Below are positions 13,587-16,964 of a stretch of 21,977 nucleotides of DNA, in pieces. Both the position numbers and the translations under genes were made by a program. This DNA comes from Abditibacteriaceae bacterium. GTDB lineage: Bacteria > Armatimonadota > Abditibacteriia > Abditibacteriales > Abditibacteriaceae. The stretch spans positions 1 to 21,977 of the forward strand of contig JANPJS010000041.1 in NCBI GenBank assembly GCA_031425655.1. The letters are read 5' to 3'. The stretch's first letter is position 1; each line of letters starts with the position of its first letter. Below the pieces are notes generated by a model. That model saw only the letters and a program-made list of their open reading frames with translations. It searched no databases and was not told the DNA's origin.

Positions 13587-13883
13587 TGTTCTAACCGCGT
13601 AGCTGGATAGGGTGAGAAATCTTGGACTGCGCGCTTTGCAGATGGAACACAAGAAAAATTAGCAACCTATCCAGCTATGCGGCAGGGCAATCGCATGAGG
13701 ATTTTTCGGAGGCTTGCCTGAGTGCCTGGCGAATAAATTCGCGGCAACAAAGCGGCAAAGTCGCCCTGCGGCGACTAAAAACTCAGAAAATAGTCCGCGC
13801 AGGCGGACTTTGCCGAGTGGTTGCCGCGAATTTATTCGCCGGGCAGTTCTCATGCGATTGCCCTGAGCTATGCGGTTAGAACA
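13587..13883. mobile_element. Small inverted-repeat element B, right arm interrupted by element C
   Basis: Left arm TGTTCTAACCGCGTAGCTGGATAGGGTG (13587-13614). Removing 13683-13875 rebuilds the right arm CAACCTATCCAGCTATGCGGTTAGAACA, which is complementary at 26/28. Confidence 0.72.
13683..13865. mobile_element. MITE C (183 bp), ISAs1-family-like ends, 10-bp target duplication, REP-doublet cargo
   Basis: Perfect 17-bp TIR CAGGGCAATCGCATGAG / CTCATGCGATTGCCCTG. AGCTATGCGG is duplicated at 13673-13682 and 13866-13875. Internal perfect 21-bp IR at 13728-13748/13820-13840. CAGGG ends with a 10-bp DR fit the ISAs1 family. Confidence 0.88.
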
Positions 13884-13911
13884 CTACCTGCTAAAAATCC
13901 TTTGTGGCCCA

Positions 13912-13936
13912 GAAAAATCCTAATGCGATTGCCCTG
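13912..13936 (-). repeat. Solo copy of the MITE C left end
   Basis: GAAAAATCCTAATGCGATTGCCCTG is the reverse complement of 13683-13707 at 24/25 positions. Confidence 0.8.
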
Positions 13937-14246
13937 GATTTTCAGAAACTATTATGCGCGCTGGTTTCTACGCGCTTTTTTGGTCGGCCTTATAGTGCCG
14001 CCTATTTTTTTCGTTGGCTCGACTCTATTTAAGCATTTGTCCACTGTCGGTGAATTGCAAGCGCAAGGTTTGCCTGTTGTTTTCGTCACGAATTCCTTTG
14101 TAGATATTACAAACTCCTCAGGCAAAGTCATTGCTTCTGGCAACGTTGCATTAGTAATTGTGGCTGCCTTATGCGGCTTATGTTCAGGATTTTTCGGGTT
14201 GGGCGTTGCCGGTTTGAATCGCCTGATTCGTAAAGCATCGCGTTAA
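13923..14246 (+). CDS. Small membrane protein (2 predicted TM helices), probable integron cassette ORF, possibly 5'-truncated
   Basis: Hydrophobic segments WFLRAFLVGLIVPPIFFVGSTLF and VALVIVAALCGLCSGFFGLGVAGL. More AT-rich than the flanking large genes. The stop lies 35 bp before an attC. The ATG lies inside the solo TIR. Confidence 0.6.
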   Translation: MRLPWIFRNYYARWFLRAFLVGLIVPPIFFVGSTLFKHLSTVGELQAQGLPVVFVTNSFVDITNSSGKVIASGNVALVIVAALCGLCSGFFGLGVAGLNRLIRKASR

Positions 14247-14281: not shown

Positions 14282-14370
14282 ACGCAACAAGGTGCTGCAC
14301 CCGACCGCCTACAACTCCGTTCGTTCCTCCTCGCTGCGCTTCCGGCGGCGGGTGGGGTTGGTCGTTAGCC
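14282..14370 (+). repeat. Integron attC site 1
   Basis: R'' ACGCAAC, 5-nt spacer AAGGT, L'' GCTGCAC, stem CCGACCGCC../..GGCGGCGGGTG, R' GTTAGCC; 89 bp; homologous to attC2 and attC3. Confidence 0.8.
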
Positions 14371-14425
14371 CAATTGTGTGCAAATTGGCTACAACTTGCG
14401 GGTGTAGTAAACTTGAAAACCCTCT

Positions 14426-15622
14426 ATGAGCGCCGATACAGAAAACACACAAACACAACTCACTGCGCTGGCCGATCACTTGTCGCAGGTTCACAACGAC
14501 ATTTTGGATGAGTGGCGTGCGCTGGCAGAAAGCGATCCCACATTGGCGCCTTCTTCACATCTCACGCGGACACAATTCATTGACCATATTCCGCATATTC
14601 TTAGGGCTTTGGGCACCCGACTCTGTTCGTGGCCTGATGATAACACGCCGGAGCAGCGCGAACTCGAACTTGAGGCTTCCAAGTCACATTCGCACCATCG
14701 TTGGCAGATGGGCTACAATATGCGCTCTCTGGTTCGGGATTGGGGGCACTTGAACGTTTGTTTCCTACAGCAACTGGATAGTTATGGAAGAAGCCATGCC
14801 GACTTGCAAATGGTTGTTTTGCCCGAAGCACGTCAGATATGGGCCAAACTCATCAATGACAGCATTGCACAGAGCACTGTTGAATATCACGATTTATTAC
14901 AAGTCGAATCCACCACGCGGTTGCACGATTTGGACCTCATATTAAAGAACCTGCAAGAGATGGAACTGCTGCGTGGGCACGACCTCCGCATTGCGACGCA
15001 CGACCTGAAAGGCGGTGTGACTATTTTAATGGGCACCACCGATTTGATAGGTAGTGATCGGGTAAGCCAGGCCGAGCGCATCCAAATGTGCCGGATGTTA
15101 AATCGAGGAGTTGCCACACTTCATCAAATGTTGGAAGAGTTGATGGATATGGCACGACTTGAAGCGGCGCAAGACCCGCGTCGTATCGCGCCGTTTGATG
15201 TCGGGCAAGTTTTCACTGAATTGTGTGAGACGTCACAACCATTAGCTGAGGCGCGCGGTTTATTTCTCAAGGCAGACGGGCCATCTAAATTTGTTATTGA
15301 AGGCGATTTTATAAAAACGCGGCGCATTGCTCAAAACTTGTTGCTCAATGCAATCAAATACACGAATGAAGGTGGCGTTTCGGTGACGTGGAAAGAGCAT
15401 GAGGGCGACCAATTGCTGCTTTGCGTGCAGGACTCAGGCCCCGGCTTAGAACGGAGCGCAACCGCCCTGCCCGGCAAAAATCAAGGCGAGGGTGTTGGCT
15501 TATCCATCGTTAAGCGGTTGTGTGAGTTGCTGGACGCCAAGATCAAAGTTGAAAGCAAAGCGGGCATCGGCACTACCTTTCAAGTCCTCTTCCCTACAGA
15601 AATCAAGAACGCTTCCGCATAA
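14426..15622 (+). CDS. Soluble sensor histidine kinase (RsbRD-N-like helical N-domain + HisKA + HATPase_c)
   Basis: H-box ATHDLKGGV, N-box NLLLNAIKYT, G1 DSGPGL, G2 GEGVGLSIVKRL, GIGTTF. No TM segments. The identity of the N-terminal domain is inferred. Confidence 0.9.
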   Translation: MSADTENTQTQLTALADHLSQVHNDILDEWRALAESDPTLAPSSHLTRTQFIDHIPHILRALGTRLCSWPDDNTPEQRELELEASKSHSHHRWQMGYNMRSLVRDWGHLNVCFLQQLDSYGRSHADLQMVVLPEARQIWAKLINDSIAQSTVEYHDLLQVESTTRLHDLDLILKNLQEMELLRGHDLRIATHDLKGGVTILMGTTDLIGSDRVSQAERIQMCRMLNRGVATLHQMLEELMDMARLEAAQDPRRIAPFDVGQVFTELCETSQPLAEARGLFLKADGPSKFVIEGDFIKTRRIAQNLLLNAIKYTNEGGVSVTWKEHEGDQLLLCVQDSGPGLERSATALPGKNQGEGVGLSIVKRLCELLDAKIKVESKAGIGTTFQVLFPTEIKNASA

Positions 15623-15638
15623 GAGGCAACGAACAAAC

Positions 15639-15720
15639 AGTTTGCAAGGCGCTGCAACCGACCGCCGGCAGCTTCTTTTTTCGCTACGCTTCCGGCGGAG
15701 GGTGAGCTTAATCGTTAAGC
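15639..15720 (+). repeat. Integron attC site 2 (R'' box degenerate)
   Basis: CAAGGCGCTGCAACCGACCGCC..GCTTCCGGCGGAGGGTGAGCTTAATC-GTTAAGC. The R'' position reads AGTTTGC and lacks AAC. Confidence 0.75.
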
Positions 15721-16056
15721 CGGTGCGCGCAGCTTGGCAGGAACTGCGGCGTCGGAAATCGTGTCGCCGATGTCTTGAGGTGTTGCACCCGTCGCCAGGA
15801 TCGCGCGCAGAAGCAATTCGATAGAAACCGAACGGTCTCCGTTCTCGGCTTTGGCAATGCGTGGCTGGCTGGAGTGAATCTTGGCTGCCAGTTCCGCTTG
15901 CGTCATTTGCTCTTGCCGGCGTTGGCGCAACTTGCGACTCAGCGCCAGCTTAATCTCAACCAAAGCTGATTCCTCTGGTGTCAATTCCAGAAATTCGGCT
16001 ACAGTTCCCACTTTCCAACCTTTGGCTTCCAACCGCTCACGCTTTGCTTTGTCCAT
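15715..16056 (-). CDS. Xre/HTH antitoxin (HigA-like)
   Basis: MDKAKRERLEAKGWKVG..FLELT N-terminus; HTH MTQAELAAKIHSSQPRIAKAENG..SIELL. AGGAG RBS precedes ATG 16056. Lies downstream of the toxin. Confidence 0.9.
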   Translation of the reverse strand: MDKAKRERLEAKGWKVGTVAEFLELTPEESALVEIKLALSRKLRQRRQEQMTQAELAAKIHSSQPRIAKAENGDRSVSIELLLRAILATGATPQDIGDTISDAAVPAKLRAPA

Positions 16057-16066
16057 TGTTTTGCTC

Positions 16067-16402
16067 CTAATTGTCGCTGTCAAACTTGTTCAATCGTCGT
16101 TGGCAATTCTCAATTACGCTTTTGGGCGTTTCTCTTGTCGTTTTGTTGAACACTTCCGCCACAACAATGGCGTCATCGTCAATTCGATACACGATTCGCC
16201 AGTTCTTGTTTTCGTCGCGCACTCGCAGTTCATGGCAATGCGTTCCAATACCGGGCATCGGGCGCGATTGAGGCAAACCTATGTTCTCGCCTTGCTGCAA
16301 ACGTCGTAATAACAATCCCGTTTCTAAACGCGCAGTTTGCGTAAATGGTGGCGTTTTCACTTCACCATGCAGCCAAACAACAGGCTTGTCCTCTTCATTC
16401 AT
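16067..16402 (-). CDS. Type II toxin, RelE/ParE superfamily (Gp49-like, HigB-type gene order)
   Basis: KPVVWLHGEVKTPPF, PQSRPMPGIG..CHELRVRD..WRIVYRID..VFNKTTRETP. Start at 16402 is preferred because the ATG at 16411 overlaps the -10 box. Confidence 0.9.
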   Translation of the reverse strand: MNEEDKPVVWLHGEVKTPPFTQTARLETGLLLRRLQQGENIGLPQSRPMPGIGTHCHELRVRDENKNWRIVYRIDDDAIVVAEVFNKTTRETPKSVIENCQRRLNKFDSDN

Positions 16403-16409
16403 ATGCGCC

Positions 16410-16418
16410 ATTATATCA
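16410..16418 (-). promoter_or_regulatory. Extended -10 promoter for the TA operon (probably leaderless transcript)
   Basis: The minus strand reads TG-A-TATAAT-GGCGCAT-ATG(16402): a perfect TGnTATAAT 7 nt before the start codon, with no SD. Confidence 0.6.
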
Positions 16419-16457
16419 CATCCGGCATACAGGCGATACCGACAAACACCGGCCTAA

Positions 16458-16601
16458 TGCGTGTCCACAGGAGTTGTTGTTCGATAGCGGGGCTGCGCCC
16501 TCTTCCAAACTTTGAGAGCCTCCTATAGCTCGATTGGAAGGGGGCGCAAGCCCCGCTATCGAGATTTTCACATTCTGAACAATAACTCTTGTGGAGATGC
16601 A
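16458..16601. mobile_element. MITE D (144 bp) inserted in the R'' box of attC3
   Basis: 25-bp TIRs TGCGTGTCCACAGGAGTTGTTGTTC / GAACAATAACTCTTGTGGAGATGCA (21/25). CTAA is duplicated at 16454-16457 and 16602-16605. Internal IR at 16481-16508/16534-16562. Confidence 0.8.
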
Positions 16602-16675
16602 CTAACAAGGCGCTACCTCTGACCGGCGGCAGCTTCGTTCGCTGCGCTTCCGGCGGGTGAGCTTAGTCGTTGTTC
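16600..16675 (+). repeat. Integron attC site 3
   Basis: CACTAAC-AAGGCGCT..GACCGGCGGCAGCTTCGTTCGCTGCGCTTCCGGCGGGTGAGCTTAGTC-GTTGTTC. Shares the GCTTCCGGCGG..GGTGAGCTTA.TCGTT core with attC2. Confidence 0.75.
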
Positions 16676-16760
16676 CGTCGCGATCGGCGTTTCGGCACGC
16701 ATCACGTTCTTTATTCACCTTACGCAATGGGGTATGGTAGGCAGGTCACCCAACAAGGTG

Positions 16761-16910
16761 ATGAGTAACGAAGTTGTGTTTATCGAAATGAACCCCGAAG
16801 ACGGCATTTACGAGCCGCTCATTGGTTACATCGTTCTGGAGCAATGTCAAGCTGCCGTTGATATGTTGGGTCACCGACTCATGCACGCCAAGCGTATGGA
16901 CTTAAAATGA
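16761..16910 (+). pseudogene. C-terminal gene fragment, possibly a clan AA aspartyl-protease-like protein
   Basis: 49-aa ORF MSNEVVFIEMNPEDGIYEPLIGYIVLEQCQAAVDMLGHRLMHAKRMDLK. The EPLIGYIVLE..VD...HRL pattern resembles the retropepsin-like C-terminal motif. No DTG catalytic motif is present in frame upstream. Confidence 0.55.
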
Positions 16911-16926
16911 GGCGCAAACAAACGAC

Positions 16927-16964
16927 AAAAAGGACAAGAGGTGAAATCACCTCTTGTCCTTTTT
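16927..16964. terminator. Bidirectional intrinsic terminator
   Basis: Perfect 18-bp IR AAAAAGGACAAGAGGTGA-AA-TCACCTCTTGTCCTTTTT with U-tracts on both strands, between convergent units. Confidence 0.88.

Follow-up and report, generated by a model that had tools for sequence, protein, structure and literature searches.

Several mobile elements are established inserters in the attC sites of integrons. Group IIC-attC introns insert in the R'' region of attC, and insertion of IS1111 members in attC was reportedly described by Tetu and Holmes in 2008 and by Post and Hall in 2009. One account counts group II introns among the known attC inserters (PMC7923331), and another presents IS1111-attC elements (ISKpn4, ISPst6) and attC inserters of the IS110/IS621 type as site-specific systems with a DEDD recombinase and an RNA guide (PMC11187229). 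The 144-bp element described here lies in an attC site of the window, a 21,977-nucleotide stretch corresponding to contig C41 of a 5.98-Mb Abditibacteriaceae assembly (G000). Like the group IIC-attC introns it occupies the R'' region, but it has terminal inverted repeats (TIRs) and a target duplication and carries no ribozyme or reverse transcriptase (the window has no Rfam intron match and the element no ORF). Like the IS1111-attC and IS110 inserters it interrupts attC, but it has true TIRs, a target duplication and a DDE parent; its ends belong to DDE_3 elements and its copies are not confined to attC (one of eight family sites). The MITE in attC3 adds no new attC-targeting system.

Two other groups invite comparison. 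The element resembles IS630, ISY100 and their MITEs in its parent (HTH plus DDE_3), its TIRs and the TA at the centre of its target, and Tenzen and Ohtsubo are said to have found in 1991 that TA within CTAG is preferred. Duplication of TA only is described for ISY100 (Synechocystis) and IS630 (Shigella sonnei; PMC2170065), whereas the flanks analysed here point to a 4-bp duplication and the core of the MITE is a host REP doublet. That core, an inverted pair (~70 bp) of a genome-wide REP, is like the doublets of REPIN/BIME systems; unlike them, it is carried between the two ends of an IS, with which it moves. A literature search by title and abstract start, with ISfinder and most subscription papers outside its scope, returned no TIR/TSD MITE in attC, no 4-bp duplication by an IS630 element and no REP-cored IS630 MITE; the clade may already be named in ISfinder or the subscription literature.

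The element, its parent and their target

The element occupies positions 16458-16601 on the minus strand and consists, in minus-strand order, of an IS left end, a REP doublet and an IS right end. Its two 25-bp TIRs (both minus strand) are identical at 21 of 25 positions, with four mismatches. The TIR at 16577-16601 corresponds to the left ends of elements L039, L069 and L110, and that at 16458-16482 to the right ends of L039, L069 and L073, which in the parent overlap the last transposase codons. Between them lies a hairpin-forming doublet of a host repeat family (16487-16557). No ORF of at least 70 amino acids crosses the element, and a promoter scan found none within it. A CTAA target duplication flanks it on the plus strand: the left copy (16454-16457) stands at the original R'' position, and the right copy (16602-16605) together with position 16606 retains the attC AAC triplet (16604-16606), as the preliminary description had noted.

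Two further full copies are present in the assembly (C30:17489-17633 and C82:7457-7601). All three copies are 94-97% identical and their flanks are unrelated, so the interruption of R'' is not a chance similarity. A profile of the ends recovered eight family sites in this genome, a count that leaves out two weak matches (C1 and C164, score 16): the three full copies, two two-ended variants (C323, C258) and three single ends (C32, C111, C281). The C323 variant is 72 bp long and lacks the REP doublet, and the C258 variant (C258:21625-21803) has a unique core; both have the same ends. Short, non-coding, bounded by TIRs and a target duplication with a matching empty allele, and present at several unrelated sites, the element is a MITE, in agreement with the earlier reading. 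Broader searches added little: BLAST of the whole MITE across 60 relatives matched only the REP core, a TIR-pattern scan of genome contigs gave two chance-like matches (one within an ORF, neither with a partner end), and relaxing the end pattern yielded mostly chance matches in the five genomes scanned. Family ends also occur in or next to other transposase genes (L034, L035 and C82:7605-7700 of the host assembly; IS630-, IS701- and IS3-like by eye), and one locus, L189, was left out of the counts of element ends.

The ends of the MITE are shared with a clade of larger elements (L039, L069, L073, L110 and L112). Full-length members measure ~1160-1200 bp and have two genes in different frames, orfA with an HTH region and orfB with a DDE_3 domain. 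The orfB product matches PF13358 at 46.4 bits (cut-off 28.6) and orfA matches HTH_32 and HTH_29 above cut-off; orfB alone matches NF033545 with an E-value of 9e-21 but at 74.6 bits, below the cut-off of 100. This combination of HTH region and DDE_3 catalytic domain places the parent in the IS630 family. Full clade elements were found in the phylum, in metagenome stretches (80 of 225 retained) and on Azotobacter plasmids. An intact parent was not assembled in the host genome, where contig C281 carries a 3' transposase remnant that closes in a MITE-type TIR; in a family member, L039 is a transposase remnant likewise closed by such an end (remnant match to NF033545, E 3.5e-8). Three IS630-type (DDE_3) transposases of the host (C106, C172, C189) were rejected as partners, having other ends. 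These comparisons suggest that the MITE probably arose by deletion from an insertion sequence of the IS630 family that targets YTAR. Of the IS5- or IS630-like mobiliser proposed in the preliminary description, the IS630-like half stands, on a DDE_3 clade with matching ends, and the IS5-like half falls; for the autonomous partner that it called for, the candidates are this clade and the C281 remnant.

The REP family that supplies the core is represented in the host genome by 70 halves and 19 doublets and is common across the bacterial family. Mini-elements of the same clade contain other REPs in G264 (L222, L224) and G016 (L036), with 50 and 220 host matches, respectively, and unique hairpins in G002 (L037) and on C258 of the present assembly; three of the five mini-element types, in three hosts, therefore enclose a REP of their own host. 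Should MITEs with a REP core prove general in the clade, they would provide a second, RAYT-independent route for the spread of REP doublets. As a separate observation, REP doublets lie beside or just inside clade remnant ends in other hosts (L039:830-935, L200).

Target preference was assessed from 96 loci, among them 64 distinct elements with both ends (including L107, a 2501-bp pair that is probably mis-paired). Flanks were CTAG/CTAG in 49 of the 64, concordant for another motif in two and discordant in 13. TA was present on both sides in 64/64 pairs, TA having been a requirement of the end search, and was preceded by C or T in 146 of 149 distinct flanks; a C stood before the 4-mer in 95 of the 149, as it does in the GCCTAAC box. 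In the finished genome G264 (three contigs), seven near-identical copies were found, two of them flanked by CTAA/CTAA and ATAA/ATAA (L193 and L194, on G264:C2), and a TA-only model would need three terminal changes there, each copying the target. In this finished genome the base adjoining the element changes in step with the target, which suggests that the clade generates 4-bp (YTAR) duplications and does not duplicate TA alone. If the 4-bp duplication is true, the chemistry of the IS630 family shows more variety than the ISY100 model allows. The discordant pairs come mostly from short metagenome contigs, where chimeras are likely, with one in a 5-contig genome (G063); discordance might also arise when an overhang from the donor is carried over. 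The Azotobacter plasmids, with two CTAG/CTAG copies and two copies with a right end only, are uninformative on duplication length.

In the host of the present MITE, four of the five two-ended elements are flanked by CTAA/CTAA, and the C82 copy by CTAA/TTAG. CTAG is ~30-fold under-represented in this genome (140 observed versus ~4351 expected), and its near absence likely explains the use of CTAA.

The interrupted cassette

The MITE lies at the end of a toxin-antitoxin cassette, with both genes on the minus strand: an HTH_3 antitoxin gene (15715-16056) and a RelE/HigB-like toxin gene (16070-16402; Pfam Gp49/DUF891). The R' box (GTT, 15714-15716) of the upstream attC2 (15630-15720, plus strand) starts the cassette; AAC is absent at the consensus R'' position of that site. 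The downstream attC3 (plus strand) now extends over 16600-16675 and shows the features of an attC site, namely an R'' AAC, L'' and L' boxes, an R' GTT (16669-16671) and likeness to its family: a motif search of the genome gave 50 full attC-like sites, and the stretch 16604-16671 belongs to this set. Its new R'' 7-mer (16600-16606) deviates from RYYYAAC, as do most attC sites of this genome, and L'' (16612-16619) forms 5/7 pairs. The first recognisable site of the array, attC1 (14282-14370, plus strand), has a degenerate L'. The window has no integron integrase, and its three attC sites form a small cluster that is a CALIN by the definition given in PMC8618304; an integrase is encoded on contig C103 (TIGR02249, 428 bits, cut-off 265).

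Excising 16458-16605 restores the R'' 7-mer GCCTAAC and a 12-mer in which 11 positions agree with the reverse complement of 15714-15725, which confirms the cassette boundaries proposed earlier. The empty allele predicted from this excision was found in G003, of the same genus, whose homologous cassette (89% identity over 744 nt) ends uninterrupted in GCCTAAC-AAG and has a perfect start-end match. Runs X3/X4, from another study, yielded a 211-nt contig that tracks 16380-16457 and then passes straight into attC sequence; it too is uninterrupted at this point and has the reading GCCTAAC. A second contig from these runs is a filled allele, in which a MITE with three C30-type letters is joined to attC3 sequence. 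Runs X5, X7, X8 and X10 contained attC, REP or cassette-end pieces and no MITE ends, and the filled cassette was not seen beside other neighbours in the metagenome runs and relatives examined.

At this locus a DDE-type MITE has naturally entered an attC site and left the conserved triplet undamaged; beyond that triplet, attC has no conserved stretch (PMC5027507). When the bottom strand was folded under constraint, with ranges set by flank length, the filled site gave 0.004-0.02 in the integrated array versus 0.0006-0.005 for the empty one; in the excised circle the values were 0.008-0.18 (filled) and 0.02-0.62 (empty), against a native median of ~0.12 over 42 sites (site only). The MITE is thus predicted by this model not to kill attC3, and folding would permit recombination with the MITE inside the cassette, as the preliminary description had suggested. 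Excision of the cassette is nonetheless likely rare because the L box of attC3 pairs at only 5/7 positions, attC2 is without its consensus AAC and L' of attC1 is degenerate; this small integrase-less array looks decayed.

Origin of the insertion

Our data are best explained by a non-coding MITE, probably derived from the IS630 family (YTAR), that most probably entered the CTAA of the R'' box as a hit on its motif, without seeking attC. A DDE transposase supplied in trans would have cut and pasted the MITE, with the scarcity of CTAG in the host steering it to CTAA. The insertion may have persisted because it avoids the genes, does not damage AAC and is located in an array that is decaying and has no integrase.

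The distribution of the family bears on whether it seeks attC, as the preliminary description had raised. One of its eight sites in the host genome lies in attC and none of the other seven do, the remaining copies standing in ordinary YTAR sites, which tells against such targeting and is the outcome that the preliminary description had named as refuting it. The next nearest attC motif to another family site is 1469 nt away, and six of the contigs have no such motif. None of nine family ends in relatives lies at attC (an attC half-motif is 1.1 kb distant from one of them); since most of their hosts have few or no attC sites, only G002 being attC-rich, these ends test targeting little. Among full elements, TAAC followed in two of the 83 right flanks, neither of them attC-like by eye, and in none of the 75 left flanks, and intI exceeded the cut-off in 0/5 hosts of full clade elements. 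A second junction between a family end and attC was found neither in 26 genomes of the bacterial family nor in 400 genomes of the phylum, the latter a weak search in that its pattern misses the C41 junction itself (two mismatches). Nine pattern matches in the phylum set and six besides C41 in the family set were rejected, with no TIR or transposase upstream. Strict attC targeting by the MITE family is excluded, and 0/7 is still compatible with up to ~35% of insertions falling in attC.

A weak preference, in which attC would be an enriched and not the sole target, is accordingly the strongest rival, and we consider it rather improbable. CTAA could be favoured where attC DNA is extruded or distorted, or survival could be better for insertions there, for example through selection for dampened excision of the toxin-antitoxin cassette. 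On a naive calculation, 5-8 insertions would include one or more R'' hits by chance with a probability of only ~1-2.6% (relative to non-coding CTAA/TTAG sites), a value that we discount solely because the site had been chosen post hoc. Excision of such cassettes is reported to be costly in one source (PMC13108822), in the circle form the flanks lower the folding value from 0.62 to 0.008-0.18, and the filled allele with C30-type MITE letters recurs in another study's runs; folding in the integrated state, however, is not lowered by the MITE. Moreover, YTAAC occurs in 8 of the 50 R'' boxes of the genome, attC3 included, and the other seven are intact. The homologous cassette in G003 had its attC hit independently, by an IS110 relative (L192:131-1555, on G003:C29), but this is accounted for by that IS110 element's own attC targeting: an IS110 element in the host assembly has its right junctions in attC in 4/4 cases (C54:37875-39130, C143, C172 and C283). 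The IS110-family element inserts in attC directly after AACAAG.

A MITE specialised in attC and travelling inside cassettes would account for the exact R'' position and the preserved AAC, but is very unlikely given the 0/7 sites elsewhere in the genome and a parent clade that resides in intI-less genomes. It also lacks a guide RNA or DEDD partner, attC2 is damaged, and the filled cassette was not seen at a second array position. We likewise give little credence to movement of the unit by a REP-associated tyrosine transposase acting on the internal doublet, with the IS-like ends as passengers. Six Y1_Tnp matches in the genome and a core made of an abundant REP doublet would fit this, but the limits of the copies coincide with the TIRs and YTAR duplications, and the same ends bound C323, without a doublet, and C258, with a unique core.

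A chimeric assembly in which a repeat was fused to the flanking cassette and attC sequences has a negligible probability: no single Logan contig of run X1, possibly the source of the assembly, crosses the whole MITE with both flanks, but each junction stands on its own contig with 0 differences (15600-16582 and 16576-16950, the shared MITE end at ~3x single-copy depth), the right junction was also recovered in another study, and in the empty alleles the flanks are contiguous.

Returning to the motif hit, a wider scheme can be put forward as a speculation that we think will probably not hold in full: a clade that duplicates 4 bp, spawns MITEs around host REPs and shifts to CTAA where CTAG is scarce would have a passive door into cassettes, and insertion in R'' would regenerate AAC, so that an integrase could shuffle MITE and REP together.

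Other features of the window

Several minor observations concern the surrounding array. At 15630-15650, where attC2 lacks the consensus AAC, there seems to be an 11-bp insertion or partial duplication. Between attC1 and attC2 (14370-15630) lies a HATPase_c histidine-kinase-like gene, an unusual cassette cargo. Further upstream, 13590-13940 contains nested inverted repeats from other dispersed families (268 genome BLAST hits); an Rfam CRISPR-DR28 match at 13791-13814 was rejected as an array, being one arm of a dispersed inverted repeat. At the toxin gene, a TATAAT hexamer on the minus strand (16402-16417) ends seven bases before the ATG, would fit a leaderless transcript and is kept in G003.
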